DNA of 64,000 bases from contig CAZVYP010000001.1 in the NCBI GenBank assembly GCA_964631075.1, positions 26,647 to 90,646 on the forward strand, given 5' to 3'. This DNA is from an uncultured Methanocellales archaeon (GTDB lineage: Archaea; Halobacteriota; JAWCLZ01). Positions 4,199 to 46,068 of the stretch are shown here, piece after piece (positions within the stretch are counted from its first letter, which is position 1; each line of letters opens with the position of its first letter). Under the pieces are notes generated by a model, which worked only from the letters and a program-made list of their open reading frames with translations, searched no databases and had not been told where the DNA came from. The position numbers and the translations under genes were made by a program.

Positions 4199-4931
4199 CT
4201 GTGTGAGCTGGTTTGCGGTGCGGCGCTTGCTATTTTTTCCCATCGCACTACCTTTGTTCGTCCTGCTGATCATCCTTATTCCAATCGTTTTGGTTTTATT
4301 CATGCTTAATATTGGCTTTACGGTATTCGAGGTACTTGGGTTCACTCCAGCAGTTGCAGTTATAATTTTGACAGGAATAATATTTGGAAGCCTGATAAAC
4401 ATTCCAATTTATGAGTTTTCCACAAGACACGAGCCGCTTATTTCAGAAGCTGATATCGAAACCGGAGTGCCGTATAGAATACAGTGGAGGGAGAGCAGAA
4501 CTGTGCTTGCGATAAATGTTGGAGGAGGGGTAATTCCACTGGCCATTTCAATTTATTTCCTTACAAGTATTCCTTTAGCCGCGTTTCTGTTCACAACATG
4601 CTTTGTTTCTCTGGTTGCATATTTTATATCCAGACCTGTTTCTGGATGGGGGATCACGGTGCCACTTTTGGTTCCTCCCCTCGCTACACTTGCAATTGCC
4701 TACTCCACGCTTTATTTCAGCGGAGGATTGCCTCACTTAGCAAAGCTTGCCTTTGCATCTGGCGTTTGCGGTGTTATAATTGGAGCTGATTTGCTTAATA
4801 TTCCCAAGGTGAAGAAAAATGGTACACATGTTATGAGTATTGGCGGGGCTGGCACTTTTGATGGCATTTTGCTGACTGCGATTTTTGCAACAATCGCCGC
4901 CGCTCTCCTAGCTGCAGGGAGCATATACTGA
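4188..4931 (+). CDS. Polytopic membrane protein (DUF1614-like)
   Basis: 247 aa with multiple hydrophobic spans and an INVGGGVIP motif. Start overlaps the upstream gene stop. Confidence 0.45.
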   Translation: MFNSCVSWFAVRRLLFFPIALPLFVLLIILIPIVLVLFMLNIGFTVFEVLGFTPAVAVIILTGIIFGSLINIPIYEFSTRHEPLISEADIETGVPYRIQWRESRTVLAINVGGGVIPLAISIYFLTSIPLAAFLFTTCFVSLVAYFISRPVSGWGITVPLLVPPLATLAIAYSTLYFSGGLPHLAKLAFASGVCGVIIGADLLNIPKVKKNGTHVMSIGGAGTFDGILLTAIFATIAAALLAAGSIY

Positions 4932-5285
4932 TGGGGCTTGGAGCTGTGAAAAGGAGCCGGTAACAGGCTGAGATTTTGGAGTTGTCCCTCGACACTAACC
5001 CCGGGGGATCATCCGTTGGCGAGCGCCGCTGTCCATCCCGGTAAACCCTGTGTCGAGGAGTGTTTCGCGCTATGGTTGTCTCAAGGTCATTGCCTGGATA
5101 TTCCATTTACTCCCGTGAGGACCTATATAGCACGAGATGTCGCCCTCTTTTTGCTCAGACGCTCATCCGCTCTAGAATAGAGTGTTGCGCCAGTCCTCGT
5201 TGAGGGCTATATAATGTTTCTCTGTTCTTGATATAAATGTATTGAAGAGTTTATTAAATTAAATCAAAATAAATTAAAAAATAAA

Positions 5286-5570
5286 TTAATGGGCTTTGGT
5301 TGCTTCAGCCACAGTTCTCTCTGCCAATTCCTGCATGCGAATTGAGATCCTGCTTGTTCCTGAAGAGTCCCCATCGCTCATAAGCGTTGCAAGTTTGGTG
5401 CCTAAAACAAAGATAGCATGTTTGTGCTCAGCCTTGCTGCGATGGATGTGCAATGGACTTATATGCAAAGAATTGTAGTCCGAAAAATCGCCGCCCATTC
5501 CATTTTGTTCAAAATAGCGTTTTATCTGTACCAACAAAGAATGCAGATGTATCAGTTCCTCCTTATGCAA
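5286..5570 (-). CDS. UPF0058-family small protein
   Basis: 94 aa starting MHKEELIHLHSLLVQIKRYFE, resembling archaeal UPF0058 proteins. Flanked by AT-rich spacers. Confidence 0.45.
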   Translation of the reverse strand: MHKEELIHLHSLLVQIKRYFEQNGMGGDFSDYNSLHISPLHIHRSKAEHKHAIFVLGTKLATLMSDGDSSGTSRISIRMQELAERTVAEATKAH

Positions 5571-5795
5571 AGTTTCAACCCCATTTTGCGTAGCCTTCGC
5601 AATCTAGCGATAAACTAGCTTAAGTTTATGTGTACTAAAAGATTATGTAGGAAAATAGTTTCCTATAATCTTTATAAGTAATTACCTCATTTTTTTTCTA
5701 AAAAAGTGTTTAAAAAATTAAAAATTAAATGTTAAACTATTAACAATTAATTGCCGTTTAGCTTTTTCCAATTTAATCCTGTGACACCATCCATT

Positions 5796-7088
5796 CTATA
5801 TGTTTTCCGCTGTCAAAATCTTGACCGACATAGGCTTCTTAACAATATTGCCCAGCTTAACACCAACCAGGTAATTGAGTTTCTTCTCAGCAGCGATGTC
5901 GATTATCCTCTGGGTAATAACCCCGTCGAAGACCACACTTCGAACGTTGGTATCTGTTTCTTTAAGCGCCCTCGCAAGATCTCTAACTGCCACTTCTTTA
6001 ATCACATTTCTGTTTTCATCAAGCAGCTTCGCACTCAAAGTACCGCTCAGCTCCTCAACAAACCGCTTGAACTCAGTACCCTCTTTCTCGCTCTCTACCC
6101 TCGGCTCAAGCGCTTTGGTGAGCTCTTCCACACGCCCCTCTTCGCTGGTTGGTACAACCCGAATTTCCTCCTTTGGCACCGTTACTGGTTCCTCGCGATG
6201 CATTATTCTCCTCTTCGAAGCCATCTCCCTGCGTCTGAACCTTCGCTCCTTTGCCTGCTGCATATCGATTACCTGCTCAACCGGGAGCTTTCCCCTCAGT
6301 GCCTTAACGATTTCTTTCTGAGTCAGATCTTCAACGCCCTTACCCTCAGGGGCTCTGGCAACGTAGTCCACGTCGGCCACCTGCAGCAGCTCTTTAAGCA
6401 GCAAATCGCCACCTCGATCCCCATCAAGGAAGACCGTAACAGTTTTGTTTTTGCTGAGCTCACCTATCACATGCGGAACATTTGTACCCTCGACAGCGAT
6501 TGCATTTTTGATGCCGCACTTCAGCAAATTGAGCACATCTGCCCTGCCTTCGACAACGAGAATGGCATCAGAACCCACAACATTTGGCCCAGCCGGCAAG
6601 GCATCGTCGCCAAAAAAGGTTATCTCCTCTACCCTCACGGCTTGCTTCACCGCTTCGATGAGCTCCTGACTCTCAGGCATTGTTTCGTCGAGCATGGTTG
6701 TAAGAATCAACCTTGCCCTTTCTATGATCTGCTTCCTCTTACTTACCCTGACATCCTCAATTTTATCCACTTTAATGTTTGCAATACAAGGCCCGACTCT
6801 GTCAACTGTCTCAAGAGCCGCAGCCAGCACAGAAGTCTCGATTTTATCCAGACTTGAAGGTATCAATATTGTTCCGTTCGACTTTCCAAATTTGGATTCA
6901 ATGTTTACCTCTATGCGTCCAATTCTACCGGTCTTCTGAAGATCTCTGAGATCAAGATCACTGCCGAGCAATCCCTCAGTTTGACCGAATATCGCTCCAA
7001 CTACATCGGGGCGCTCAACCACGCCCTCCGCATTAATGTGAGCGTGAATAACATACTTAGTCGTATCCGAAGCTTCCATATTTACCAT
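5796..7088 (-). CDS. dnaG: DNA primase DnaG (archaeal Toprim-domain)
   Basis: 430 aa with archaeal DnaG N-terminus (KYVIHAHINAEGVVERPDVVGAIFGQTEGLLG) and Toprim core (ILVVEGRADVLNLLKCGIKNAIAVEGT ... FLDGDRGGDLL). Confidence 0.9.
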   Translation of the reverse strand: MVNMEASDTTKYVIHAHINAEGVVERPDVVGAIFGQTEGLLGSDLDLRDLQKTGRIGRIEVNIESKFGKSNGTILIPSSLDKIETSVLAAALETVDRVGPCIANIKVDKIEDVRVSKRKQIIERARLILTTMLDETMPESQELIEAVKQAVRVEEITFFGDDALPAGPNVVGSDAILVVEGRADVLNLLKCGIKNAIAVEGTNVPHVIGELSKNKTVTVFLDGDRGGDLLLKELLQVADVDYVARAPEGKGVEDLTQKEIVKALRGKLPVEQVIDMQQAKERRFRRREMASKRRIMHREEPVTVPKEEIRVVPTSEEGRVEELTKALEPRVESEKEGTEFKRFVEELSGTLSAKLLDENRNVIKEVAVRDLARALKETDTNVRSVVFDGVITQRIIDIAAEKKLNYLVGVKLGNIVKKPMSVKILTAENI

Positions 7089-8365: not shown

Positions 8366-8735
8366 GGGAGAGTGGAAGGGCAGCCGCCGGTGCTTCAAAG
8401 AAGTGCTGAGGAAAGTCCCCCCACCATCCGGACAGACGAGCGTGCGCAAGCACGCAGGGCGAGAGCTCTGGCTCTGGCACAGCCACGACACGTCCAGGCG
8501 AATGGGATGAGACGGCAAGCGTGAAAACGCAGAAGGAATTCAGCAATGGACTCCGAGCTAACCCGTCGACGACTCGCTTGGGAGCGATGGAACGGCGAAT
8601 CCTCGTCGGTGCAAGCCAGTAAGGGAAAAAGTCCGGATAAACCCTTGGTAGGCGCTAAGCCAAATGCTGCATGGTCCAAATCTCTGCCTGCGCGGAGGGG
8701 CCTAACCGAAGGGGGCTTATTCTCCACACTCCCGA
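8366..8735 (+). ncRNA. rnpB: RNase P RNA (archaeal type)
   Basis: ~370-nt GC-rich gap with no credible CDS. 5' GGGAGAGUGGA (8366-8376) pairs with 3' UCCACACUCCC (8723-8733) as P1. A P3-like hairpin GUGCUUC-AAA-GAAGUGC is followed by the CR-I-like GAGGAAAGUCCCCCC (8409-8422). That strand pairs with GGGGGCUUA (8711-8719) leaving one bulged nucleotide, as in helix P4. The 3' strand is preceded by ACCGAA (CR-V-like ACNRAA...GGCUUA). Confidence 0.6.
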
Positions 8736-8744
8736 TTGATATTA

Positions 8745-8820
<76 letters not shown>

Positions 8821-10269: not shown

Positions 10270-11283
10270 ATGGGAGTTGACCTCGGAGACCTGATCGAGC
10301 GCAGAGAAATAGAGCTGAATGAACTCGCGAATCGCATCGTAGCGATTGACGCCTACAATACCCTGTATCAATTCCTTAGCATAATAAGACAGCCAGATGG
10401 CACACCGCTTACAGACTCAAAAGGCAGAATAACTTCCCACCTCTCAGGACTCATATACCGCACCACCAATTTAATCGAAATAGGAGTCAAGCCGGTTTTC
10501 GTATTCGACGGCAGACCACCCCAGTTCAAAGCGACAACCCTCGAAGAGCGCGCCACAACCAGACAGAGAGCCGAAGAAGCCTGGATCGAAGCAAAAGCCA
10601 CAGTAAGCGAAGAAGCCTTCAAATACGCACAGGCCTCGGCAAGGCTGACGCAGGAAATGATCAGCGAAGCCAAAGCACTCATAGGATATATGGGCTTACC
10701 CGCGATACAGGCACCATCCGAAGGCGAGGCACAGGCATCATTCATGGTGCTCAGCGGCGACGCGGATTACGCAGCCTCACAGGACTACGATTCTCTATTA
10801 TTCGGCTCCCCCAAGCTAGTAAGAAACCTGACAATAACGGGAAAAAGAAAGCTACCGTCAAAGAACATATACATCGACGTCAAGCCAGAAACCATCGAGC
10901 TGCGAGAAATCCTGAAAAAGCTCGAAATCACCAGGGAGCAGCTCATAGACATCGGAGTCTTGATCGGCACAGACTACAACCATGGGATAAAAGGCATAGG
11001 GCCAAAGAAAGCCCTGAAGCTGATCAAAAAGCACGGCACAATAGAAGGCGCGCTGAACGAACTCAAACAGAACATAGACAGCTTCAAAGAGATAAAAGAA
11101 TTCTTCCTCAATCCAGACGTAACCAGCGAGTACGAAATAAAATTCAGGTCACCGGAAAACGAAAAAATCAAACAATTTTTATGCCAAGAACACAGCTTCT
11201 CAGAAGAAAGAATAGACAAAGTGCTCGAAAGACTGAGCATATTTAGAAGCACAATGAAGCAGAAGACACTTGACCAGTGGTAA
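10270..11283 (+). CDS. fen: Flap endonuclease 1 (FEN-1)
   Basis: 337 aa with an N-terminal XPG-N region (MGVDLGDLIERREIELNELANRIVAIDAYNTLYQFL), I-domain (DYDSLLFGSP, GTDYN) and helix-hairpin-helix (GIGPKKALKLIKKHG). Confidence 0.9.
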   Translation: MGVDLGDLIERREIELNELANRIVAIDAYNTLYQFLSIIRQPDGTPLTDSKGRITSHLSGLIYRTTNLIEIGVKPVFVFDGRPPQFKATTLEERATTRQRAEEAWIEAKATVSEEAFKYAQASARLTQEMISEAKALIGYMGLPAIQAPSEGEAQASFMVLSGDADYAASQDYDSLLFGSPKLVRNLTITGKRKLPSKNIYIDVKPETIELREILKKLEITREQLIDIGVLIGTDYNHGIKGIGPKKALKLIKKHGTIEGALNELKQNIDSFKEIKEFFLNPDVTSEYEIKFRSPENEKIKQFLCQEHSFSEERIDKVLERLSIFRSTMKQKTLDQW

Positions 11284-11305
11284 ATAAAAATAATATTATA
11301 ATAAA
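11269..11305. repeat. Direct repeat copy 1 (37 nt) overlapping the fen1 3' end
   Basis: cttgaccagtggtaaataaaaataatattataataaa covers the last four codons and stop of fen1 plus 22 nt downstream. It is identical to 12125-12161. Confidence 0.85.
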
Positions 11306-11414
11306 TTCACAAATATCGATTTGCTCCCTGGCAAATCTGAAAGAAACCAAAACCAAACATATATAACAACAGAGGCAGTTGAGGCTAGCTTCGAAGGCTC
11401 ACTTTCCCGAAGCA

Positions 11415-11432
11415 ACAAAATTTATATATACT
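11415..11432 (+). promoter_or_regulatory. TATA-like box upstream of the toxin-antitoxin cassette
   Basis: aaaatTTATATATAc lies ~35-45 nt upstream of ATG 11464, with GGTGAG RBS-like sequence at 11455-11460. A palindrome agCTTCGAAGg sits just upstream and could be an operator. Confidence 0.3.
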
Positions 11433-11463
11433 TTATATACCAAAATATATCTTTGGTGAGCAT

Positions 11464-11706
11464 TTGAACGATCTCCATTCGCTTCCGGTGTACTTCAAGA
11501 AGCACGCCGTTTTGATGCTTGCCGAGCGCTTTGAGCTGGATTCGCAGGATGCCGAGCATCTTGTAAAAACTGCCAAGTTGCTTAAGCCCATCGAGAAGGA
11601 TGGCGAGATTGGCCTTCTGCAAAGCTGCATTGGCGAGTGCGAGATCAGATTTGTATTTACAATTAGAAAGAAAGTCGTCTGGATAATAACCGTGGAGGAA
11701 ATATGA
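11464..11706 (+). CDS. DUF4258-like small protein, putative RelE/ParE-fold toxin
   Basis: 80 aa. HAVLMLAERFELDSQDAEHLVKTA resembles the DUF4258 core (HAxxRMxERGIxxxEIE). The C-terminus IRFVFTIRKKVVWIITVEEI has the alternating hydrophobic beta pattern of RelE-like toxins. It is translationally coupled (ATGA overlap) to the next gene. Confidence 0.45.
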   Translation: MNDLHSLPVYFKKHAVLMLAERFELDSQDAEHLVKTAKLLKPIEKDGEIGLLQSCIGECEIRFVFTIRKKVVWIITVEEI

Positions 11707-12008
11707 AAACGAAAGTAGTTGAGTGTCCAATCTGTGAATCTCCCATGAGCCGGGAGAGAAGGGAGATCAAAAAGGGAATTTACGCTGAGGTCGAGGTCTG
11801 CCCTAAATGCAATGACGAGTGGATTGATGAGAGGGGCTACGACGAAATCTATCAGCAGCTTTTCACACGCCGAGCCTTTAAAATCGGCGGCAGCCTGGCT
11901 ATTCGCATTCCCCGGGAGATTATTAAAGCGCTCAATCTGCACGAAAATAGCGAGCTCAAGGTCAATCTCAGGGATAATAAAATTGTGATCGAGCCTTTGA
12001 AAACGTGA
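11703..12008 (+). CDS. Putative antitoxin: YgiT/MqsA-type zinc finger fused to AbrB/SpoVT swapped-hairpin DNA-binding domain
   Basis: The N-terminus VECPICESPMSRERREIKKGIYAEVEVCPKCNDEWIDE matches the YgiT-type (MqsA N-domain) CxxC...CxxC zinc finger. The C-terminus FKIGGSLAIRIPREIIKALNLHENSELKVNLRDNKIVIEPL is a canonical AbrB/MazE/SpoVT domain. Confidence 0.55.
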   Translation: MKTKVVECPICESPMSRERREIKKGIYAEVEVCPKCNDEWIDERGYDEIYQQLFTRRAFKIGGSLAIRIPREIIKALNLHENSELKVNLRDNKIVIEPLKT

Positions 12009-12124
12009 GAAAAAAATCCCTCCCAGGGTCACTTGAAATCTTCAATCAGCTATAATAGAAAATCTAACAGCTTCTTAAGTTTATCACGATTTATATAACA
12101 ATAGTCTCCTGCTTTTCTCCGCCT

Positions 12125-12161
12125 CTTGACCAGTGGTAAATAAAAATAATATTATAATAAA
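12125..12161. repeat. Direct repeat copy 2 (37 nt)
   Basis: Identical to 11269-11305. Both copies are followed by ~40 nt of degenerate similarity (ttgctccc..aaatctg) containing short hairpins. Confidence 0.85.
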
Positions 12162-12357
12162 ATTATCCAATACGGCTTGCTCCCGAAAAATCTGCATGCA
12201 ATATTATATGTGGTGAGCAAGCCATATCTGAAAAGGATGAGGCCGCCCTGAGGCGGGTGGGACGAAGTAGGGAAGGGATCACTGCTTTTCTTTTCCAGGG
12301 TTTCGCTGACAAAAAGCTATTAATACTTATGTAACTAAAATCTTTTTTAGCGAGATT

Positions 12358-13173
12358 ATGGTTACAAAAAAAATAAGACTTGGTGATATGGAGCTGAAGT
12401 TGCTGTTCACGCTGGAACAAGAAGGAAAAAACGTGTTTCTAGCAAGTGATGCACACAGAATCCTGAAGTCAACGGATGCCTCTGTGAGAAACGTGCTCTA
12501 CAGGTTGAGAAAAAAAGGCAGAATCGAAGAGATAGAGAAGGGGAAGTATCTGCTGGTGCCCGCGAGAGCCGGTTACAAAGCAGAATGGTCGGAGGTTCCT
12601 TTTCTGCTTGTCCCGCACCTGATAGATAACTACTACCTTGCCTTCTGGTCGGCTCTTAACTACTGGGGCATGACAGAGCAGTCTCCTCGCTCGGTGTTCG
12701 TTGCGACAACGAAGAGAAAAAGAGATTTAACCTACGGAGACACAAAATTTGAGTTCGTGACGCTTGCAAAAAAAAAGTTCTTCGGATTCGTGGAGGAAAA
12801 AACTAATGGAGGCAAATTCAACATCTCTTCAAGAGAGAAAACAGTTGTAGATTGCTTGCTGTATCCAAAGTACTCCGGTGGGCTGGACGAAGCGGTAAAA
12901 GGAATATGGAGGGGAAGAAAAGAGCTGGACTTCGAAAAAATGCTGGAGTACTCGAAAAAGATGGGAGTAGAAGTGGTAACCAGAAGGCTGGGATATATAC
13001 TGGAATTGCTGAAAATTGAAAATAAGATAAGTTCAAAGATAGCCTCTGGCAAATTCAAAGGATATATGTGGCTTGACCCATTGGGAACCAAGAAGCCTAT
13101 AGAATATTCAAAGAAGTTCGGGCTTGCGATAAACCGAACAAGCGAAGAGCTAAAAAGCTGGATGGAGCATTAG
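12358..13173 (+). CDS. AbiEi-family (type IV TA) antitoxin / wHTH transcriptional regulator
   Basis: 271 aa. N-terminal wHTH with RLRKKGRIEEIEKGKYLLVP, typical of the AbiEi_4 antitoxin N-domain. The C-terminal domain is consistent with AbiEi. It is followed 2 nt later by an AbiEii fragment. Confidence 0.65.
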   Translation: MVTKKIRLGDMELKLLFTLEQEGKNVFLASDAHRILKSTDASVRNVLYRLRKKGRIEEIEKGKYLLVPARAGYKAEWSEVPFLLVPHLIDNYYLAFWSALNYWGMTEQSPRSVFVATTKRKRDLTYGDTKFEFVTLAKKKFFGFVEEKTNGGKFNISSREKTVVDCLLYPKYSGGLDEAVKGIWRGRKELDFEKMLEYSKKMGVEVVTRRLGYILELLKIENKISSKIASGKFKGYMWLDPLGTKKPIEYSKKFGLAINRTSEELKSWMEH

Positions 13174-13174
13174 G

Positions 13175-13552
13175 ATGAACGCTGACGATTTAAGAAGACT
13201 TGCGAGAAGAACCGGTTTTGACGCTGGAACTCTTGAGAAAGACTATGCTCTAACATGGCTGCTCAGCGGCATTTACTCAGAGGATTCCAAGCTGAGAGAC
13301 ATCCTGATTTTCAAGGGAGGCACTGCGATCAGAAAGGTTTACTTTCCAGAGTGGCGACTCTCAGAAGATCTGGACTTTACCATCACGCAGAAGGTAACGC
13401 CGGAAACTGTGAGACAGAGTTTTGAGCAGGTTTTTCCGCTGCTAAAAGATACCAGCAAAATTGCCTACTCTCTCAGCTCCTTCAATTACAGCAAACACGC
13501 AATTTTCGCGGATGTTCAGTTTCTTGGTCTGGCGGCTGATGAAGGAAAATGA
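13175..13552 (+). pseudogene. AbiEii/AbiGii (DUF1814) nucleotidyltransferase toxin, truncated to the N-terminal 125 aa
   Basis: LEKDYALTWLLSGIYS ... LIFKGGTAIRKVYFPEWRLSEDLDFT matches the conserved N-terminal nucleotidyltransferase region of AbiEii toxins. Full-length proteins are ~250-300 aa. This one stops after 125 aa, and the downstream space is occupied by a convergent gene. Confidence 0.55.
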
Positions 13553-13570: not shown

Positions 13571-14608
13571 TTATTTTTCGGTGAGAATTCGCATATCTGC
13601 GTCTTGGAAGTGTCGAAAGGCTTTCTTGGCGTATTTTTTGTCCATTCTCAGCGCATAAATCTGCAGCGCCTTCAGAGCAGCTGATCCGCCAATTTCTTCA
13701 TCGAATGACATCTGGATGGTCCATCCAGTACTTCGCAGATAATCGGTGCCTGTCACCAGGTCTTCCTCCTTCACTCCTTTCTGTGGAATACGCTCGCAAG
13801 AGATTCCGAACTCTGATAAAATCCTGAAAACCGTATCGTTAAGGAAAGACCAGATTGCCAGTGTCTTCTCGCTGCCCCGGTTGGTAAGGAAGGTTCTGGC
13901 ATCAATCATTAGAGGTGAGCTCTTCTCTTTCTCGAATTTGCCGTAGTTTCCGAGTATCCACAGAAACCTCAAAATATGTGTTCTCACTTTCTCAAGTTTA
14001 TGATGTTGACCGAACGTGTCGGCATCTCGAAATCCGAGTGAAGAAAACTGCAAGGTTGACAGCAGCCTGTGAACTGCGCTGAAAGCCTCGGTCTCTTCTT
14101 CGGTGAATTGCAGTTTCTCTGGAAAGTCGACGATCTTCTTCTTGGTTATCAATATTCTTGCTGGTTCTGCAATCTCTTCTGGCTTCAGCGAAGCACGAGT
14201 CGCCTCCAGGCGATTTATTCCCTCAAAAGGTTCTACAAAAGCGTGATAGTCATCTTTAGAAATGGGCGCGCCAAGCTTTTCTTCTATAGTCTTTCGATTC
14301 CAGGCACCGGCCGTTGCTTTCAAAATGTCACATGGAAATCGCGAACAATAAGCACAATTTGCCACTCCACTCCTGTCCACGCATTGCCGTATCAAACATT
14401 TTCGATTAGGCAGCTTAGATCCTTTGGGAATTTTCGAATCTGGAGTCAGGCATGTCACGCACGGCGTCTTAATCGGCATGTATCCTAAAATCGCCTTGGC
14501 GTTGTTTCTGTAATGTTCAAATTCCGAGGCAGTCATGCTCTTCCTTGGATAAGGTCCCCAGGGACATCTACCGCAATCTATGCCGCATTTAGAAACGAGC
14601 TTTGCCAC
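13571..14608 (-). CDS. DUF3795-like Cys-rich (putative Zn-binding) protein with uncharacterized C-terminal domain
   Basis: N-terminus CGIDCGRCPW ... CVTC ... CLIRQC ... CAYCSRFPC fits the DUF3795 cysteine pattern. The remaining ~190 aa have no recognisable motifs. Confidence 0.5.
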   Translation of the reverse strand: MAKLVSKCGIDCGRCPWGPYPRKSMTASEFEHYRNNAKAILGYMPIKTPCVTCLTPDSKIPKGSKLPNRKCLIRQCVDRSGVANCAYCSRFPCDILKATAGAWNRKTIEEKLGAPISKDDYHAFVEPFEGINRLEATRASLKPEEIAEPARILITKKKIVDFPEKLQFTEEETEAFSAVHRLLSTLQFSSLGFRDADTFGQHHKLEKVRTHILRFLWILGNYGKFEKEKSSPLMIDARTFLTNRGSEKTLAIWSFLNDTVFRILSEFGISCERIPQKGVKEEDLVTGTDYLRSTGWTIQMSFDEEIGGSAALKALQIYALRMDKKYAKKAFRHFQDADMRILTEK

Positions 14609-15215: not shown

Positions 15216-15884
15216 ATGAAAAGAGGTTTGAAGTTGATAGAGCTCACTCCCGAGGGAAGAATCGTGGCAGCATTGATCGGAGGGGCTTTGAGCTATGGCA
15301 AATTAAAAGCTAAAACTAGCTTGAGCGACCGGTGGCTCTCCATCAAGTTAAAAGAACTGACTTCGGTCGGAGTAATAGAATATAGAGGCAATGGTTATCA
15401 GCTTATGAATCCTGCTGATGTTCTTGGAGATCCGGTTTTTGCAAAATATGTGGAGGGAAGCGTTCAGTTAAAGACAAAGGCAAAATTAATTGCCGAGGAG
15501 CTGAGCGTCGACGAGCAGGTTTGCGCTGTGATACTCTTTGGCAGTCTGGCGAAGGGAAAGGCTACTGAGGAAAGCGATGTCGACCTGGTTGTGGTCACGG
15601 AGATGGATGTCGAGGAAAAGTTGAACAGGGTGATTTATAATCTTATGTTCAAGTACGACGTGGCAGTTGAGGCAGTTTTCCTGACAGTTGAAGATCTGAT
15701 AATAAATCTTCAGTCCAGAACTGCCTTTTCTTTCGGGATGCTTGAAGCTTATGAGGTGCTGTATGATAAAATTGGAATAGAGTACCTCCTCCGTGTAAAG
15801 CAAAGAGAACTTCGAGAGAACTGGACTTATGACGAAGAGGCCGCGGCATGGATTCAAAAGAGGCTAATACCTACTTGCAGATAG
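15216..15884 (+). CDS. wHTH + minimal nucleotidyltransferase (MNT) protein, antitoxin-like partner of HEPN
   Basis: N-terminal winged-helix-like segment, then the MNT signature ILFGSLAKGKATEESDVDLVVV (GS...D.D). Overlaps the downstream HEPN gene by 37 nt. Confidence 0.65.
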   Translation: MKRGLKLIELTPEGRIVAALIGGALSYGKLKAKTSLSDRWLSIKLKELTSVGVIEYRGNGYQLMNPADVLGDPVFAKYVEGSVQLKTKAKLIAEELSVDEQVCAVILFGSLAKGKATEESDVDLVVVTEMDVEEKLNRVIYNLMFKYDVAVEAVFLTVEDLIINLQSRTAFSFGMLEAYEVLYDKIGIEYLLRVKQRELRENWTYDEEAAAWIQKRLIPTCR

Positions 15885-16279
15885 CGCTGGATCAGTTGAA
15901 AGATGCTGAACTGGCGTTTAAAAATGAGAGGTATGCTCTCTGTGTGCTCCTGGCGGCTTTATCTGCAGAGAATGCAACTTCTGCCTGGCTTATAGTGCTG
16001 GGAGCCAAACCTAGCAAGAAACATAGAAATTCCCTGGTATTGAAAAGACTGGCGGAGAGCATTAACGAGAAGCTGAAGGAAGGATTGATGGAAGCGATCA
16101 GATCCATGGAAGAGCTTGAACCGCATGTTACTAAAGCCAGATATCCGATTCGCCATGACTTAGAACTTCTCCCACCCAGCAAATTTTACACAAAAGAAAA
16201 AGCAGCAGAAAGCTTAGCTAAAGCAGAATATGTGGTTGAGCTTGTAAAACAGAGAGTTCACACAGATTTTAAAAGCTGA
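15848..16279 (+). CDS. HEPN-domain protein (toxin-like partner of MNT)
   Basis: 143-aa helical protein. The N-terminus YLQIALDQLKDAELAFKNERYALCVLLAALSAENATSA is typical of HEPN. KARYPIRH is a candidate Rx4-6H motif. Confidence 0.6.
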   Translation: MDSKEANTYLQIALDQLKDAELAFKNERYALCVLLAALSAENATSAWLIVLGAKPSKKHRNSLVLKRLAESINEKLKEGLMEAIRSMEELEPHVTKARYPIRHDLELLPPSKFYTKEKAAESLAKAEYVVELVKQRVHTDFKS

Positions 16280-20552: not shown

Positions 20553-21197
20553 CTACTTCTCAGGTCTCAGCACTGACGATATTGTGGAGAAGGCGCTTTT
20601 CACTACAAGGTATGTGCCTCCAATAACGATCACCGCCGGTGCTGTCAGCCCAAGAGTTGCCGCGCTAATTCCAGCGGAAACCAGAATAGCCGTGTCGTGC
20701 CGGGTCAGAAATGCCGCCAGTTTCTTCATTGTTGAGGGACTGACGTCTATTGCGTCTGTCTCAAGCATAACATTGCCTTTTTGAAAAACCTTTACCCAGC
20801 CGCTTTCCTCCGAGACCAGCACTGCAGTTATATTTTCATTTTGCTCCGTGATGCCCTTTGCTGCTGCATGTCTGGTACCAAACCCATGGAAGGTTGAACT
20901 CTTCAGAATCCTCGCGCCATATGCAATTATTTCTCCACCGGGAGTCAGATAAACGGCGCCATCGATAGAAGCAAGTTTTTCCAGCACAACATCCATGCCT
21001 TTTGTTAGCAGAGAGCCGGCAAGGGTAATTTGTGGATACTGACATTCATATGTGCCCTGCACATTCTCTCTTGGGGCTATTACGAAGAGAGCTCCCTTTT
21101 TGTCTTTAGCAAGCTTCTTGGCAAGGGCGAGAACTCTTTGCATTACCTCTTCTATATCAGTTTCTTCTTGAGTTTTTGCTGCTGCGTTTTGTTCCAT
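20553..21197 (-). CDS. dacZ: Diadenylate cyclase (DAC/DisA_N domain), DacZ-like c-di-AMP synthase
   Basis: DAC signature DGAVYL ... and GTRHAAAKGITE (the DGA and RHR motifs of DisA_N). C-terminal hydrophobic segment. Confidence 0.65.
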   Translation of the reverse strand: MEQNAAAKTQEETDIEEVMQRVLALAKKLAKDKKGALFVIAPRENVQGTYECQYPQITLAGSLLTKGMDVVLEKLASIDGAVYLTPGGEIIAYGARILKSSTFHGFGTRHAAAKGITEQNENITAVLVSEESGWVKVFQKGNVMLETDAIDVSPSTMKKLAAFLTRHDTAILVSAGISAATLGLTAPAVIVIGGTYLVVKSAFSTISSVLRPEK

Positions 21198-22678: not shown

Positions 22679-22794
22679 GGGCTCGTAGCTCAGTTAGGCA
22701 GAGCATCTGGCTTTTATTCTCTGGACCATCGCGAGTAGCGAGTGGAAGCCTAGAAGATACCAGGTGGCCGGGGGTTCAAATCCCCCCGAGCCCG
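22679..22794 (+). tRNA. tRNA-Lys (anticodon TTT) with ~42-nt intron
   Basis: Acceptor GGGCUCG/CGAGCCC, D-arm GCUC-AGUUAGGCA-GAGC, anticodon stem UCUGG/CCAGG. Mature loop CUUUUAA is obtained by removing 42 nt after position 37. T-arm GGGGG-UUCAAAU-CCCCC, discriminator G. Confidence 0.6.
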
Positions 22795-38514: not shown

Positions 38515-39150
38515 ATGTTTATTCACAGGTACCAGCGCGCAACTTATAATTTCTTCAAATGGAGAAGTGAAACGGATTATATCAATAAACTCGTCCTCGC
38601 GGCTGGCTTCGCAGTCTTCACGGGACTGCTCGCGCAGGTTAGATTGTATCTGCCGTTCACTCCTGTTCCGGTAACCGGGCAGACCTTCGCAGTCTTGCTG
38701 ACAGGAGTGATGCTTGGTTCGCGATACGGCGCTCTGAGCCAGGGGATTTACGCGGCGCTTGGCTTCGCAGGCATACCGTGGTTTGCCGGTTGGAGGGGTG
38801 GTATCGAATTGCTTACAGGAGTAACCGCAGGCTACATAGCTGGGTTTATACTCGCTGCAACAGTAATTGGCTGGTTTACCGATCGCTATGTAAAATCCCG
38901 CAGCTATGGTGGCATGCTGCTGTTGATGCTCCTCGGCTCGGCAATAATCTTAATCTCAGGGGCAACAGTGCTTGCGCTGATAATGCACACAAATCTGGAG
39001 CAAACCCTTGTAATGGGCGTGTTGCCATTCATTCCAGGTGACATTTTTAAAGCCACTTTAGCAGCGGGTATCGCAAGTGCACTTGCACCTAAAGAAGCGT
39101 TTAACAGCGAGGTGGATGCGGGTTATCAACCGAGGAGCTGGCTATTCTAA
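38515..39150 (+). CDS. bioY: Biotin transporter BioY (ECF S-component)
   Basis: LPFTPVPVTGQTFAVLLTGVMLGSRYGALSQGIYAALG is the BioY signature. ~190-aa 5-6 TM protein. Confidence 0.75.
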   Translation: MFIHRYQRATYNFFKWRSETDYINKLVLAAGFAVFTGLLAQVRLYLPFTPVPVTGQTFAVLLTGVMLGSRYGALSQGIYAALGFAGIPWFAGWRGGIELLTGVTAGYIAGFILAATVIGWFTDRYVKSRSYGGMLLLMLLGSAIILISGATVLALIMHTNLEQTLVMGVLPFIPGDIFKATLAAGIASALAPKEAFNSEVDAGYQPRSWLF

Positions 39151-39243
39151 ATTTTAATTTTATTTTTATTTGTTATATAAATATATTATTTTATAAAAGA
39201 TGCTGAACAAGCTATATAGCCAAAGAAATATTACCTTTAGACC

Positions 39244-40488
39244 ATGCGCTTCGAAGACGAAAAAGAGGCACATCCCACCCTTGATATTAAAGCATCGAAA
39301 GCCACCACATTGTCAGGCAAGAAGATCGTTTTAGCTGTAACCGGCAGCATCGCAGCAGTTGAGTGCATTAAGCTTGCCCGCGAATTAATACGCCACGGCG
39401 CAGACGTCTATGCAGTTATGAGCAAAGAGGCAACTCGCATTCTGCATCCAAATGCCCTTGAATATGCCACAGGGCACAGAGTGCTAACAGAGATCTCAGG
39501 TGCCGTCGAGCACGTGGAATACTGCGGGGAGCGCGAGCTCGCAAAACGAGCTGATTTGCTTTTGATTGCTCCCTGTACCGCGAATACCATCGGCAAAATC
39601 GCCTGCGGAATTGACGATACTCCAGTTACCACTTTTGCCACAACAGCACTTGGCTCAAAAATTCCAATCATAATCGTGCCAGCAATGCATGCTTCGATGT
39701 ACTCACATGCAATTATTGCCGAGAACATTGAGAAGCTTAAAAAACTTGATATAAAATTCATCGGCCCGAGATTTGAAGAAAAGATAGCGAAGCTCGCAGG
39801 GGTTGAGGAGATAGTTATAAATGTCGAGCGTACTCTGGGTCCGCACGAGCTCGCTGGAAAAAATATAATAATAACTGGCGGAGCGACTGCAGAATCCATC
39901 GACCCGATTCGCATTCTCACTAATCGCAGCTCAGGTAAAACCGGCATTGAGCTTGCAAATGAAGCATACCGCAGAGGAGCAAACGTCACGCTCATCCAGC
40001 GCTCTCATTTAAGCTGCGCCACTCCCGAGATTAAGTCGATATCCATAGAGAGCGTCGAGGAGATGATCAGTGCAGTCGTGAAAGAGATGGAAAAAGAGCG
40101 GTATGAGGTATTGATAAGCGCGGCGGCAATCTCTGATTTCACTGCCGCCAAGCATTCCACGAAAATCAAGTCCGGCGAGCCGGTGCTGCTTCGCCTCAAG
40201 CCAACTCCGAAGCTGATAAGAAAGGTAAGGGAGAAATATCCGGATTTATTCGTAGTTGGTTTTAAAGCCGAGACTCATGTTTCTGAGGGAGAACTCCTGA
40301 GACGCGCAAAGAGCTTGATGCAGCGCGACCGTCTGAATATGATGATAGCAAATGACGTCGCCGACGGCGGAATTGGAACTGAGAGCAATGATGTTTATAT
40401 CATCACCGGAAGTGGTGTTGAGCGGATATCTGGCCTGAAGCGAGAAATCGCGAGAAAGATCTTGGATAAAGTAGCGGAGCTGCTCTGA
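39244..40488 (+). CDS. coaBC: Bifunctional phosphopantothenoylcysteine decarboxylase / phosphopantothenate-cysteine ligase (CoaBC/Dfp)
   Basis: N-terminal flavoprotein (KKIVLAVTGSIAAVECIKLAREL...PAMHASM) and C-terminal CoaB domain (ITGGATAESIDPIRILTNRSSGKTG). Confidence 0.85.
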   Translation: MRFEDEKEAHPTLDIKASKATTLSGKKIVLAVTGSIAAVECIKLARELIRHGADVYAVMSKEATRILHPNALEYATGHRVLTEISGAVEHVEYCGERELAKRADLLLIAPCTANTIGKIACGIDDTPVTTFATTALGSKIPIIIVPAMHASMYSHAIIAENIEKLKKLDIKFIGPRFEEKIAKLAGVEEIVINVERTLGPHELAGKNIIITGGATAESIDPIRILTNRSSGKTGIELANEAYRRGANVTLIQRSHLSCATPEIKSISIESVEEMISAVVKEMEKERYEVLISAAAISDFTAAKHSTKIKSGEPVLLRLKPTPKLIRKVREKYPDLFVVGFKAETHVSEGELLRRAKSLMQRDRLNMMIANDVADGGIGTESNDVYIITGSGVERISGLKREIARKILDKVAELL

Positions 40489-41336
40489 TGAAGAGCAGAG
40501 CCTTTGCACCAGCCCATATAACCGGTTTTTTTGAAATCTGTGAGGATAGCGAGCCGCTGAGAATGGGCTCAAGGGGCTGCGGCATTGTATTAGACACTGG
40601 AATAACAACCGAGGTCAGAACTGGCGCTGAGACCTTTATCGAGCTAAATGGAAAGAGAGAGCAAGCTGAGACAAGCAGGTGGGTGGTAACCGCACTGGCA
40701 AATCGCGCCCAAGTTGAAGTGTGCTCAAAAGTTGAGATTCCTATAGGCTGTGGACTTGGAGCAAGCGGGGCTGGCGCGCTGAGCACTGCATTTGCTCTGA
40801 ACAGTGCTCTGGCACTTGAGAAAAGCTTTAACGAACTAGCGTCAATAGCGCACGTTGCTGAGGTTGAGAATCGCACAGGTCTTGGAAGTGTTATGGGCCA
40901 GTGTCACGGAGGAGTAGTTATCAGAAAGCAGCCGGGAGCGATTGGATTTGGAGAAGTTGATAGGATTCCAACTGGAAAATTGCAGATTTTTTACATAGCA
41001 ATGGGCGCAATCCCGACGAAAGAGGTAATCACCAGCAGCACTGCTAAAAAGAAGATAAATCTCTCCGGTAGAGGGGCTTTGAAGGCACTGCTAAAAAAGC
41101 CCACTTTTGAAAATTTTATGAAGCTCTCCAGATGGTTTGCTTATAAAACCGAGCTTGTTAGCGGCAGAGCCAGAGATATTATCGAAGCAGTTGAGGCAGA
41201 AGGCGGGGCTGCCAGCATGGCGATGCTCGGCGACACCGTTTTTGCAGCAAATATCAAGGAAAGCGCTTTGAAAAGAGCTGTATCCGGAAAGATCAGAAAA
41301 GCTCGCATCTGCCAGAGTGGCGTGCACCTGCTGTAG
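40488..41336 (+). CDS. GHMP-family kinase, probable pantoate kinase (archaeal CoA pathway)
   Basis: GHMP motif IPIGCGLGASGAGALSTAFAL. N-terminus APAHITGFFE. Overlaps the coaBC stop (ATGA), so context supports the CoA pathway. Confidence 0.6.
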   Translation: MKSRAFAPAHITGFFEICEDSEPLRMGSRGCGIVLDTGITTEVRTGAETFIELNGKREQAETSRWVVTALANRAQVEVCSKVEIPIGCGLGASGAGALSTAFALNSALALEKSFNELASIAHVAEVENRTGLGSVMGQCHGGVVIRKQPGAIGFGEVDRIPTGKLQIFYIAMGAIPTKEVITSSTAKKKINLSGRGALKALLKKPTFENFMKLSRWFAYKTELVSGRARDIIEAVEAEGGAASMAMLGDTVFAANIKESALKRAVSGKIRKARICQSGVHLL

Positions 41337-41348
41337 CCAGAGAAAAGC

Positions 41349-42608
41349 CTACATCTGTTCGCCGAAAGTGGTCTGAGTAAAGCTTCTGAGCATAGTCAGC
41401 GGAAACTTCACTCCATCAAGCGAGCTCAATCGCGGGTCTTCAAGCAAAACGCTCCTGGTACCGTCAAGAGGCACGCTCAGCGTGATTTCTTTAGTCCTGC
41501 CATATCTTCCCTTGCTTACAACAATTGCATTTATAATCCCAAGCATGTCAAGTTCTGATATCAAATCGGTCACCCTTCTCTGGGTGAGCTCGTCTGATCC
41601 GATCTGCTTGCAGAGTCTTCTATAAACATTAAAAACTTCTCCCGTAGTTGCATTTTTTGCTCCTGATTCGTCCAAGATGATCATGCTGTATAACACTAGC
41701 TTGCTTTGAGTCGGCAGAGTTCTTATTACCTCTATGATTCTGTCGACTTCGATTTTCTCCTGCGCCTGCCGCACATGCGCCTCTGCAACCATGGTAGCCT
41801 TTTGCCTCTCTGCCAGCTCTCCAGCAACTCTCAAAAGGTCAAGCGCCCTTCTCGCATCACCGTGCTCCTGGGCAGCTATTGCTGCGCACAGGGGTATTAC
41901 TTCGGTTGAGAGCGCATTTTTCTTGAAAGCTGAGATTGCCCTTTGCTCAAGTATATCCCGGAGCTGATCAGCGTTGTAAGGAGGGAAGATTATTTCTTCT
42001 TCTCCAAGAGAGCTTTTTACTCTCGGGTCGAGTAACTCTGTGAACTTCAAGTCATTGGTTATGCCGATTACGCTGACCTTCGCCTTGTTTAGCTCGGCGT
42101 TTATTCTTGATAGATTATAGAGCGTGTCATCGCCGCTTTTTTTAATCAGCTTATCTACCTCGTCAAGCATGATTATTACTACCTGTTCTTTCGTATCCAG
42201 AGCCTCTTTGAATTCTTTATATACGTGATCTGTAGGCCAACCCGTGAACGGCACCTCTCTGTTGAAGCTGTTGGCTAAATGCGCCAGTACTCGATATTGT
42301 GTATCAATGACCTCGCAATTTATGTAAAGCACAATACAGGGTATTCCTTTAGATTCCCCTGTTACCTCGAGCTGCTTTCCTACATATTTTGCAGTAGCTG
42401 TTTTACCGGTCCCGGTCTTGCCATAAATTAAAACGTTGGATGGAGTCTCATTTCTCAATGCAACTACAAGTATGGTTGCAAGTGCTTCTACCTGTGTCTT
42501 TCTGTGAGGAAGATAATCAGGCGTATAAGATGGTCTGAGGATTTCTTTATTTTCAAAAATCGGCTCAATTTTTAACAGATGTTCGAATATACAGCCTTCC
42601 ACTGTCAC
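41349..42608 (-). CDS. cdc6: Orc1/Cdc6 replication initiator
   Basis: LRPSYTPDYLPHRKTQVEALATIL, Walker A GKTGTGKTATAKYV, Walker B IIMLDEVD, C-terminal winged helix. Confidence 0.9.
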   Translation of the reverse strand: MTVEGCIFEHLLKIEPIFENKEILRPSYTPDYLPHRKTQVEALATILVVALRNETPSNVLIYGKTGTGKTATAKYVGKQLEVTGESKGIPCIVLYINCEVIDTQYRVLAHLANSFNREVPFTGWPTDHVYKEFKEALDTKEQVVIIMLDEVDKLIKKSGDDTLYNLSRINAELNKAKVSVIGITNDLKFTELLDPRVKSSLGEEEIIFPPYNADQLRDILEQRAISAFKKNALSTEVIPLCAAIAAQEHGDARRALDLLRVAGELAERQKATMVAEAHVRQAQEKIEVDRIIEVIRTLPTQSKLVLYSMIILDESGAKNATTGEVFNVYRRLCKQIGSDELTQRRVTDLISELDMLGIINAIVVSKGRYGRTKEITLSVPLDGTRSVLLEDPRLSSLDGVKFPLTMLRSFTQTTFGEQM

Positions 42609-43224
42609 ACCCCCAGCATATTAGAGAGATTTTGCACTCGAAGTAACGGCTTATTCTATAATAAATATTGTGGTTAACGTTTGCTAAGACCTTTGTTTCT
42701 CCTGCAGATATTTTTATTTTAATTTTTAATAAAAATAAATTAAGACTTTCCTTTGAAAAATAAAGCTTTAGAGCTTTTATTCGTATGTTCAATTTTTTCA
42801 ATAATTAAAATAGCTGATCTGCAATACCCCTTAATTTCCACTCGAGTTGTTCTGTTAACTCCAACCCCTATATTTCAAATGGAGATTCTGTTACTTAGAT
42901 TGTCATTCTTCTTTAACTTAAACTTACATAAATATAAGATTGGTGTTTTGTTATACAATTACAAATATATATATGTTTCTATTATTTTGTGATAATAGAT
43001 TAATAATAGATATACATCACATCTATTCCCAACGCTATTAAAAATGTAGACTTGCAAATGAAAAATAGGGGGCGGGTGCGCACGATATAGTTAGAGCAGC
43101 AATCAGAAGTCAATTCAGGGCATCACATTTTTAACACATAAACGGGTTCCCTAAGCGTAAAAATTATATAGAAGTGTTCGTCTATTATTAATTTTGAGAT
43201 CCAAAAATTACTGGAGGTTTTAAA
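42609..43224. promoter_or_regulatory. Putative replication origin (oriC): AT-rich unwinding region with an ORB-like element
   Basis: ~600-bp non-coding, very AT-rich spacer directly upstream of cdc6. At 42835-42846, TTTCCACTCGAG matches the reverse complement of the archaeal mini-ORB core (GTTTCCACTGGAA) at 10/12 positions. A G-string (gggggcgggtg) lies at ~43069. Only one ORB-like copy was recognised. Confidence 0.4.
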
Positions 43225-43461
43225 ATGACTCAACAAGCCATACAGCCAATTCTAATTCTGAAGGAAGGAACTCTGAGAGCAAGAGGAAAAAATGCACAGA
43301 GCGCAAACATTTTTGCAGTTCGAGCAGTTGCAGAGGCCGTGAGAACGACACTGAGTCCAAAAGGAATGATTTTGCGCATCGATGACGTCGTTGCAGCTGG
43401 CAAAGTTGAAAAGGAGAAGCCCCCTTCAAAAGAAAAAGAAGATTTTGACTCCGAGTATTAA
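43225..43461 (+). pseudogene. Thermosome (group II chaperonin) 5' gene fragment
   Basis: The first ~48 aa ([48 protein letters not shown]) match the canonical thermosome N-terminus (GQPIFILKEG...[20 protein letters not shown]). Similarity then ends and the ORF stops at 78 aa, whereas thermosomes are ~540 aa. Confidence 0.45.
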
Positions 43462-43501
43462 TTTTACCAACATTTTTTTATTTATCGCAAGCATCTAACT
43501 G

Positions 43502-44095
43502 GTGAAAGCTATGAACGAAAAGCCCGATGAGAAAGAAAAAAACGAAACAAATGAGACCGCGCAGGGGGAAAGCGCAAAAATTAAAACCGAGCTTGACGAG
43601 AAAATTAAATTGATTGAGGAAAATATAAAGCTCCTTGAAGAAAAAAACAGGATGCTGGAGGAAAAAAATAAGCTTGAAAACGAATATCAAAAACAGCTTC
43701 TATATCTGAGAGCAGACTATGAGAATCTAAAGAAATTAGCGGCAAGAGAAAAGGCAGAGTACATCAAATCCACAAACGAAGATCTGGTTAAAAAGCTGCT
43801 GCCGGTGCTCGACAGCTTCGAATGTGCATTAAAAATTGAAGAAATAAGGGAAAATAAAAAAATTAAAGAAGGAATAGAAATGCTCTACCGCCAGCTTTAT
43901 GAAATACTTGAAAAAGAAGGATTAAAACCTGTAGTAGCGGTTGGAGAGAAGCTCGATCCATTCAAACACGAGGCGCTCACGCAGGTACAGAACAGCGAAG
44001 TTGAGGAAGATATAGTGCTTGAGGAGTTTCAAAAAGGTTATACTTTCAACTCGAAAGTAATTCGCACTTCTAAAGTTAAAGTTTCAAAGAGGTGA
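43502..44095 (+). CDS. grpE: Nucleotide exchange factor GrpE
   Basis: Coiled-coil N-terminus plus the GrpE core ([42 protein letters not shown] ... [16 protein letters not shown]). Confidence 0.85.
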
Positions 44096-44100
44096 TATGT

Positions 44101-45987: not shown

Positions 45988-46068
45988 AAGGCGAACCTGC
46001 ATTGCTCTTTTTAACCCCCCTCATTTAATATACAATAAGAGTAATGTATCAAAAGACGAAACAGAGCG

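Follow-up and report, generated by a model that had tools for sequence, protein, structure and literature searches.

The DNA analyzed here is a 64,000-nt stretch (the window) of contig CAZVYP010000001.1 from an uncultured Methanocellales archaeon, in which a two-gene toxin-antitoxin (TA) cassette lies directly downstream of fen1, bracketed by two 37-bp direct repeats that duplicate the end of that gene. fen1 (positions 10270 to 11283, + strand) encodes a 337-aa flap endonuclease of the FEN-1/XPG family (Pfam XPG_I, E = 1.7e-26; XPG_N, E = 2.9e-20). Exact search finds the 37-mer CTTGACCAGTGGTAAATAAAAATAATATTATAATAAA at 11269 to 11305 (copy 1) and at 12125 to 12161 (copy 2), on the + strand in both cases, just where an earlier annotation made from the letters alone (the sequence-only reading) had placed the pair. 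That reading assigned the last four sense codons and the stop codon of FEN-1 to copy 1, and the open reading frame (ORF) at 10270 to 11283 agrees: copy 1 begins with the final 15 nt of the gene, CTT GAC CAG TGG TAA (L-D-Q-W-stop), followed by 22 nt of AT-rich spacer. Copy 1 overlaps the 3' end of fen1 and leaves the gene intact, and copy 2 is a displaced, nonfunctional duplicate of the gene end. In the geometry of an integrated element, copy 1 is the attL-like or left target-duplication copy and copy 2 the attR-like or right one (att, attachment site). Copy 1 is flanked by AGAAGACA on its left (fen1) and TTCACAAATATC on its right; copy 2 is flanked by TTCTCCGCCT on its left (the cassette tail) and ATTATCCAATAC on its right.

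The 819 bp between the repeats (11306 to 12124) contain only two ORFs, which are co-oriented and overlap in the sequence ATGA. The first (11464 to 11706, + strand) starts with TTG and encodes a putative 80-aa toxin of the DUF4258 family (RelE/ParE superfamily). Its Pfam DUF4258 match (E = 0.005, 17.6 bits) is below the cut-off for the window protein taken alone; DUF4258 is matched by 21 of 21 aligned toxin family members, with a best E value of 4.6e-7. An AlphaFold2 model of the toxin has a mean predicted local distance difference test score of 84 and a helix-helix-four-strand layout; fold searches with it were unspecific and did not recover RelE/ParE structures. The second ORF (11703 to 12008, + strand) encodes a 101-aa antitoxin with an N-terminal CxxC...CxxC zinc ribbon and a C-terminal MazE/AbrB/SpoVT DNA-binding domain (Pfam MazE_antitoxin, E = 1.8e-12, 47.4 bits with the cut-off at 24.7; NCBIfam AbrB domain, 28.4 bits with the cut-off at 28.3; NCBIfam MazE also matches). 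Based on the operon layout and the antitoxin fold, the pair is a putative type II TA module. Type II modules that combine a MazE/AbrB antitoxin with a RelE/ParE-superfamily (DUF4258) toxin are known (PMC11980606). The window pair resembles them in that its two small genes overlap and encode a DNA-binding antitoxin of AbrB fold and a putative toxin of DUF4258 type, and differs from them in that the toxin gene comes first and the antitoxin carries an extra N-terminal zinc ribbon.

The region upstream of the toxin gene (11306 to 11463) comprises a 15-nt spacer, a hairpin (GATTTGC-TCCCTG-GCAAATC, 11318 to 11337; z = -3.05 as single-stranded DNA), a AAACCAAAACCAAACATATATA block (11344 to 11365), a TATA-like box (11420 to 11439), and a Shine-Dalgarno (SD) sequence, GGTGAG (11455 to 11460), all on the + strand. 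The cassette therefore has its own TATA-like box, ribosome-binding site (RBS), and translationally coupled two-gene operon, as first described, and the same layout of TATA box, SD sequence, and TTG start is kept in four other loci that carry a related pair (L082, L083, L086, and L087). Between the antitoxin stop codon and copy 2 lies a noncoding tail of 116 nt (12009 to 12124), which has no similarity to the tails of other family members. Two further sequence matches were set aside. A 13-mer of the cassette hairpin recurs at 61688, which we attribute to chance because the second occurrence is inside a coding gene. The sequence TGGTGAGCA is common to the toxin SD region and to the 5' end of an RNA motif downstream of the cassette (DUF3800-X, described below); this match is weak (6 of 500 shuffles) and is treated as a coincidence, since the SD sequence explains one occurrence and the consensus of the RNA family the other.

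Similarity between the two copies extends beyond the 37-mer to ~71 to 72 nt, with 86% identity overall. The alignment is a mosaic of 37 perfect nucleotides, ~15 nt that are essentially unrelated, and then TTGCTCCC and AAATCTG in register; on the copy 2 side this diverged continuation occupies 12162 to 12194 (+ strand), in which the 15-nt spacer is followed by TTGCTCCC-GAAAAATCTG in register with 11321 to 11339. All 13 differences in the 71-nt alignment lie beyond the first 37 nt (P = 1.6e-5 under uniform decay). The weaker similarity that had been noticed past both copies is thus real, whereas the short hairpin that had been described after each copy is present only after copy 1 and is degenerate after copy 2. 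The switch from 37 of 37 identical positions to unrelated sequence would fit a crossover and would fit a duplicated segment that decayed later much less well: if a crossover fell within the repeat, identity would be perfect and then collapse immediately on the right side, because there copy 1 borders on cassette DNA and copy 2 on resident DNA.

The DNA on the right side of copy 1 does resemble cassette DNA. Blocks upstream of the toxin gene (the hairpin TTGCTCCC..GCAAAT and AAACCAAAA..ACATATATA) are common to the family loci L113, L115, L120, and L123, with P values of 0.002 to 0.009 for the similarity of the post-copy-1 DNA to their upstream regions. The cassette proteins of these loci are only ~50% identical to those of the window and their genomic contexts are unrelated. 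Judged by this similarity, the DNA directly after copy 1 is part of the cassette, and its homology to DNA upstream of distant cassettes places the left junction of the insert at or immediately past the 37-mer. In contrast, the similarity of the copy 2 flank to the upstream regions of other family members is nonsignificant (P = 0.23 to 0.93). The idea that this flank is the stump of an earlier cassette is thereby left unsupported, and only the in-register TTGCTCCC/AAATCTG match remains of it.

Another account of the repeat would be that the 37-mer is a functional intergenic signal, such as a terminator- or promoter-like AT-rich element, or that the duplication is an artefact of assembly. The 22 noncoding bases are indeed AT rich and TATA-like and were flagged by a sigma-70-type scan (which is irrelevant for archaea), and short-read assemblies do break at the repeat. 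However, there are exactly two copies of CTTGACCAGTGGTAAATAAAAATAATATTATAATAAA in the window and no third at up to 3 mismatches, where none is expected (0 matches in 100 shuffles), and 15 nt of the repeat are coding sequence of fen1. With up to 3 mismatches allowed, the AT-rich noncoding part likewise has just two occurrences in the window; of the 139 fetched loci, three contain it, all of them Logan contigs of the same species, and the other 136 do not, and the 22-nt core has no match in the metagenome and viral contig collections. A degenerate third copy that might delimit an older element was looked for in the window and not found. The 37-mer is therefore not the common motif that the sequence-only reading had named as a possible pitfall.

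Independent assemblies bear on the artefact. Logan contig L134 (ERR12264628) corresponds to window positions 11939 to 13529 at 99.75% identity and crosses from the antitoxin end through copy 2, with both of its flanks, into the downstream gene abiEi. This contig comes from another sample, and it rules out an assembly artefact at the distal junction. From SRR8539650, contig L001 (9682 to 11305) stops at the last base of copy 1, and contig L133 (12132 to 16663) begins k - 1 = 30 nt before the end of copy 2. The distal junction is thus backed by an independent sample, and the proximal junction only by the source assembly and a branch at the end of the repeat. The breaks in SRR8539650 are compatible with excision of a circle and are not diagnostic of it. 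Logan assemblies yield the exact FEN-1 and AbiEi proteins, but the two cassette proteins are known only from the NCBI record; this is equally compatible with a mixed population of occupied and empty sites and with a simple repeat-induced break, and we draw no conclusion from it. Taken together, these results largely refute the signal or artefact account, which we consider very improbable.

Homologues of the antitoxin (n = 51, mostly 93 to 96 aa) and of the toxin form the same overlapping pair in unrelated neighbourhoods, and the pairing of toxin with antitoxin is kept in most family loci. For 41 family loci, the 2 kb upstream of the pair were compared with the 2 kb downstream, and the same test was applied at 168 random positions in 56 related archaeal loci as a control. 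The cassette is bracketed by significant direct repeats in 14 of the 41 loci and by inverted repeats in none, compared with 7 direct (about 4%) and 8 inverted repeats at the 168 control positions. The difference for direct repeats is significant (Fisher P = 7e-7) and stays so once redundant loci are collapsed (P = 9e-5). Within ±400 nt, 7 loci have perfect direct cores of 15 to 37 nt, and inverted matches are no longer than 11 nt. The repeat sequence differs at every locus, repeat lengths range from 32 to about 190 nt, and across the loci compared the cassette ends carry neither a conserved sequence nor an inverted repeat. The repeats lie 39 to 177 nt before the toxin start and 3 to 117 nt after the antitoxin stop in many independent loci. 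Because the spacing between copies is mostly 650 to 890 nt, the unit is essentially the operon itself.

In at least four loci, one of the repeat copies forms the intact 3' end of an adjacent gene, of which the second copy is a displaced remnant. The target lies upstream of the cassette and is co-directional with it in the case of fen1 in the window and of a TctA gene in locus L103; it lies downstream and is convergent in the case of a MAST-domain gene in L087, where the remnant still encodes a diverged copy of the last ~60 residues, and of an FG-GAP gene in L112, L115, and L129. The repeat is sharply bounded and best conserved on the promoter-distal side, in terms of cassette orientation, in all 5 loci in which this could be assessed.

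Three side observations concern individual family loci. The cassette of L086 has a CTTTGCG-type triple heptamer motif on either side (4669 to 4697 and 6233 to 6261), and the motif also precedes the cassette of L087. The L086 cassette additionally holds an acylphosphatase gene and a partial second copy of the antitoxin gene (5823 to 6018; 84 to 87% identity). L083 has a 109-nt direct repeat (3 to 111 and 259 to 367; 77% identity) upstream of its cassette.

An empty site was found for L103, a Hydrothermarchaeota metagenome-assembled genome (MAG), by searching for homologues of the DUF2100 protein encoded downstream of its cassette. A sister lineage (L135 to L137; 79% identity) has TctA, 21 nt, and DUF2100 in succession, without a cassette and with a single copy of a 53-nt segment, TCAAGGATACACTGCATGGG...CTTTTTG. 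In L103, L138, and L139 this segment is present twice, around a 611-nt insert that consists of promoter, toxin, antitoxin, and 12 nt. At the left copy the TctA frame runs on into a new stop codon that comes from the insert. The original stop codon, the spacer, and the RBS ahead of DUF2100 are all preserved at the right copy, in which a 2-nt indel has arisen. Within the species no polymorphism of the insertion was seen, as both assemblies are occupied. L103 is a bona fide insertion that duplicated the 3' end of a gene, and the inserted unit is a member of the same cassette family.

In L114 and L115 the repeat core is present three to four times (L115 positions 210, 4578, and 5328; L114 positions 42, 4410, 5160, and ~6791). 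All of these copies are versions of the 3' end of an FG-GAP surface-protein gene, in frame through ...YTASFTV and then differing in their tails (SDV*, QVPP*, and TAG*). The segments between them are a 4.4-kb block with an AAA/DUF4143 ATPase gene and the TA cassette, to which L114 alone adds an NB-ARC ATPase gene. The two genomes are 99.4% identical up to the cassette-adjacent repeat and different past it, so segments bounded by gene ends have been gained or lost between near-identical genomes, as in tandem att accretion. The footprint repeats across the family, one locus having a verified empty site and another having serial remnants, which shows that it reflects a recurrent mode of spread and is no accident of the window genome. 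Insertion at a gene 3' end, which the sequence-only reading had put forward for the window, is accordingly supported by the unique repeat, by 14 of the 41 family loci, by the four gene-end loci, and by the L103 empty site.

The same observations must be weighed against a route with no mobile intermediate and no dedicated enzyme, either an accident of template switching or microhomology-mediated break-induced replication, or an unequal illegitimate crossover between divergent chromosome copies. In the latter version, a fen1-cassette copy and a fen1-AbiE copy in one polyploid cell would have recombined, stacking the two modules and duplicating the fen1 end that they share. Replication or repair accident, or unequal exchange, is a serious rival, although we judge it to be on the unlikely side. 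Repeat lengths that range widely and are specific to each locus, the lack of conserved ends, and the lack of a recombinase would all follow from it; a perfect segment followed by a diverged homologous one is what two alleles joined out of register would look like; and the serial stacking of accessory genes in L114 and L115 fits repeated unequal exchange. However, the association with repeats is specific to this TA family, ~8-fold over background and strictly direct, and the sharp boundary is on the same side in 5 of 5 loci whatever the orientation of the target gene. In addition, remnant c1 of L115 is truncated at either end, a structure that a single unequal crossover could not yield, and the other TA modules of the window (AbiE and MNT/HEPN) lack such repeats.

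Neither the cassette nor the remainder of the window supplies an enzyme for insertion. The absence of an integrase or transposase from the cassette, noted at the outset, extends to the whole 64 kb: no integrase, transposase, or Cas1 is encoded by the 52 window ORFs of at least 150 aa, and a tblastn search of the window with the tyrosine recombinase of L084 was negative. Most cassette loci likewise have no integrase, the exceptions being L084 and L085. Nor was an integrase-bearing element with the same att sequence found in the window or in the viral and plasmid collections. In L084, a TA cassette with a 5'-truncated toxin gene lies beside a gene for a 298-aa tyrosine recombinase (5014 to 5910, - strand) that abuts a tRNA gene (6071 to 6145, - strand), an arrangement typical of integrated elements; a second tRNA-fragment repeat that would delimit this element is not found within the 9.5 kb available.

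These data bear on the possibility that the cassette is what deletions left of a larger integrase-bearing element, a provirus or plasmid once integrated at the fen1 3' end, with the TA pair and the att sites surviving. TA modules are expected to be the last part of such an element to be lost. The occurrence of the same TA family beside a tyrosine recombinase abutting a tRNA gene (L084 and L085) speaks for this possibility, and the truncation of the neighbouring AbiEii shows that deletional decay has occurred in the region. On the other hand, the repeats are tight around the operon in many loci, and independent random deletions would not trim so precisely each time. The whole L103 insert, compared with its empty site, is only 611 nt long, no integrase fragments remain between the repeats, and L084 lacks the second tRNA-fragment repeat. 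We therefore consider a decayed element quite unlikely. The earlier description had left "minimal or decayed" open, and of these two, minimal is the better fit, given how closely the repeats enclose the operon at many independent loci.

Based on the structure of the locus, the family survey, and the L103 comparison, we think it probable, with some reserve, that the DNA from 11306 to 12124 plus one copy of the 37-bp segment is a minimal, nonautonomous integrated cassette that was inserted by recombination at the fen1 end. The window cassette would have arrived in a single recombination event, after which the same 37 bp stood on each side of it. The most likely route is a single crossover, falling inside the 37 identical bases, between the chromosomal fen1 end and a free form of the cassette, circular or other, that would carry a copy of the 37-bp segment. 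The left copy keeps fen1 intact, and the right copy is a displaced remnant beside the DUF3800-X RNA and the AbiEi-AbiEii' module (AbiEii' being the truncated form). The catalyst would be encoded outside the cassette and the window, as a trans-acting recombinase or as host recombination at short homologies. Once inserted, the TA pair would be expected, from the general biology of such modules, to stabilize itself by addiction.

As for the catalyst, a trans-acting, sequence-specific integrase sits poorly with repeats whose sequence and length change from locus to locus. Short-homology recombination by the host, acting on a cassette that carries a copy of its target, would explain spread among related genomes; it would not explain how the cassette first reached a new gene. 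Cutting with a long stagger followed by fill-in would explain de novo duplications, but a candidate enzyme is lacking here. The footprint supports the original proposal of insertion into a gene 3' end; that the insertion was site-specific, in the sense of a dedicated recombinase, is hypothetical.

Several observations weigh against insertion of a minimal cassette. About two-thirds of the family loci have no flanking repeat. Some of the repeat moves together with the cassette in the L113/L120/L123 subfamily, so that not all repeats are simple target copies, and those of L093, L095, and L123 are duplicates of cassette or gene segments instead of ends of neighbouring genes. The variability of repeat sequence, repeat length, and cassette ends between loci is hard to reconcile with one sequence-specific integrase. 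The comparison with viruses and plasmids that had been suggested at the start gave no match to the cassette on known viral contigs or plasmids, the only matches being unrelated Staphylococcus AbrB genes. With no recombinase found and no cassette on known viral contigs or plasmids, there is no identified vehicle or enzyme. Finally, the fen1 site itself could not be seen empty in the collections, because they hold no close relative: the FEN-1 cluster at 90% identity has a single member, and in the closest available genome, the Methanocellales MAG L002 (FEN-1 79% identical), the DNA downstream of fen1 is unrelated (an ABC transporter), with collinearity returning only at about window position 20560. 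L002 does share the upstream synteny (histone, transglutaminase-like gene, zinc-ribbon gene, and fen1), and since the two genomes differ downstream nonetheless, the 3' flank of fen1 is a variable region.

The cassette was compared with known classes of elements. Its geometry resembles that of the cis-mobilizable elements (CIMEs), which are flanked by att sites and have no recombination genes, such as that at the 3' end of fda in Streptococcus thermophilus. CIMEs are catalogued in ICEberg 2.0 (PMC6323972). The window cassette is like them in that direct repeats duplicate the 3' end of a housekeeping gene, the target is left intact, and there are no integrase or transfer genes in between; tandem accretion of elements at one site, as in L114 and L115, is a further likeness. 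However, CIMEs are kilobases long, derive from integrative and conjugative or integrative and mobilizable elements, and have a cognate integrase-bearing element with the same att site, whereas here the unit is a single TA operon of 0.6 to 0.85 kb, each locus has repeats of its own, and a cognate element or integrase is not known.

Archaeal integrases mediate gene capture, and prophages can replace the 3' end of a gene, as e14 and phage 21 do in icd. As in these cases, integration is at a gene 3' end, the incoming DNA gives the gene a new end (L103 and L115), and displaced remnants of old ends pile up as direct repeats. Those elements, however, carry an integrase gene or are split around one, and they integrate into tRNA genes or at a fixed att site, whereas we find no integrase or fragments of one and a diversity of protein-coding targets (fen1, TctA, MAST, and FG-GAP). 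Casposons are Cas1-dependent, self-synthesizing archaeal transposons, found in methanogens among others, that insert at the 3' ends of tRNA and aEF-2 genes. Casposons insert at the 3' ends of conserved genes with target duplication and can be arranged in tandem, features that have parallels in the present loci; tested directly, the cassette shares only the 3'-end preference. They are 8 to 20 kb in length, with terminal inverted repeats (TIRs), Cas1, PolB, and a fixed 14- to 15-bp duplication. Cas1, PolB, TIRs, and a duplication of that length are all absent from the window cassette, and it is therefore not a casposon. A DDE or insertion sequence-type transposon, or a miniature inverted-repeat transposable element, was also rejected, in view of insert ends without inverted repeats and duplications that vary from 32 to about 190 nt. 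Integron cassettes, among which TA cassettes are common in chromosomal integrons, share the compact promoter-TA unit, the bounding repeats, and the arrays with varied cargo; they differ in that the repeats here copy the ends of neighbouring genes and are not a cassette-borne attC, and in that there is no IntI nearby. Neither repeat region has an attC-like fold (z = -1.96 to +1.08 as single-stranded DNA) and the window encodes no IntI, so this class was rejected as well.

In a literature search of incomplete coverage, we found no published account of bare archaeal TA operons bracketed by long duplications of neighbouring gene ends. Tentatively, and as a possibility that may well prove wrong, these loci could be previously unrecognized miniature archaeal mobile cassettes, with a TA body, no recombinase, no terminal repeats, and no fixed target, which insert at the 3' ends of diverse genes with duplications of 32 to ~190 bp by a mechanism so far undescribed for prokaryotic mobile DNA (a trans-acting long-stagger integrase, or host recombination with a captured target). 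If so, serial use of one gene end would build small defence and TA islets.

TA modules are known to move between genomes, but the relocation of a bare two-gene operon is rarely visible. Here, the insertion footprint is kept at base resolution beside an essential replication gene, and it is found in distant archaea (Methanocellales-like organisms, Hydrothermarchaeota, and others), with one pair of occupied and empty sites. What is new is that the footprint recurs family-wide, with an empty-site example, and that the unit is essentially nothing but the TA operon. Such insertions would explain the stepwise build-up of small TA and defence islets, for example the cassette, AbiE, and MNT/HEPN modules downstream of fen1. 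The loci also offer a testable system for how accessory and defence genes join the ends of archaeal core genes without disrupting them, in which host recombination can be set against a trans-acting enzyme.

The DNA beyond copy 2 belongs to other modules. A DUF3800-X RNA motif (12211 to 12284, + strand; Rfam RF02984) lies between copy 2 and abiEi, matches the full length of its model (1 to 73 of 73) with 58.6 bits against a gathering score of 38.2, and is part of the downstream neighbour rather than of the cassette. It was rejected as a general companion of the cassette, being absent from 20 other cassette loci. This class of RNA motif has no known function (PMC5737381), and there is no DUF3800 protein gene near the motif. 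The AbiEi antitoxin gene that follows (12358 to 13173, + strand) looks intact (Pfam; PADLOC AbiEi, 7.4e-81), and the AbiEii toxin gene (13175 to 13552, + strand) is truncated, covering only positions 4 to 117 of a 260-position profile. This AbiEi-AbiEii' pair is an older accessory module on the distal side of copy 2. A convergent DUF3795 gene (13571 to 14608) abuts the truncated AbiEii gene. A third TA-type module in the variable block consists of a gene for an MntA-like nucleotidyltransferase (15216 to 15884) that overlaps a HEPN gene (15848 to 16279), both on the + strand; beyond this pair are genes for KaiC, a response regulator, and others. No direct repeats flank the AbiE and MNT/HEPN modules of the window.

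The window as a whole is core chromosome, with genes for RNA polymerase subunits, EF-2, EF-1alpha, ribosomal protein S7, Orc1/Cdc6, DnaJ/GrpE, primase, RNase P RNA, and tRNAs. Rfam assigns a 116-nt tRNA (58.4 bits) to 22679 to 22794 (+ strand), which was not reported by ARAGORN and is probably intron containing. The Orc1/Cdc6 gene (41349 to 42608, - strand) lies between AT-rich inverted repeats at 39149 to 39183 and 42715 to 42749 (35 nt, 71% complementary), and the gene and repeats may be a replication origin with elements like the origin recognition box. Relative to positions 1 to 8515 of L002, a block of ~7.5 kb (39262 to 46773; CoaBC-like, pantoate kinase-like, Cdc6, GrpE, DnaK, and DnaJ genes) is inverted and translocated, with a breakpoint near 8368 to 8820, beside the RNase P RNA gene (8368 to 8731) and a tRNA-Val gene (8747 to 8820).

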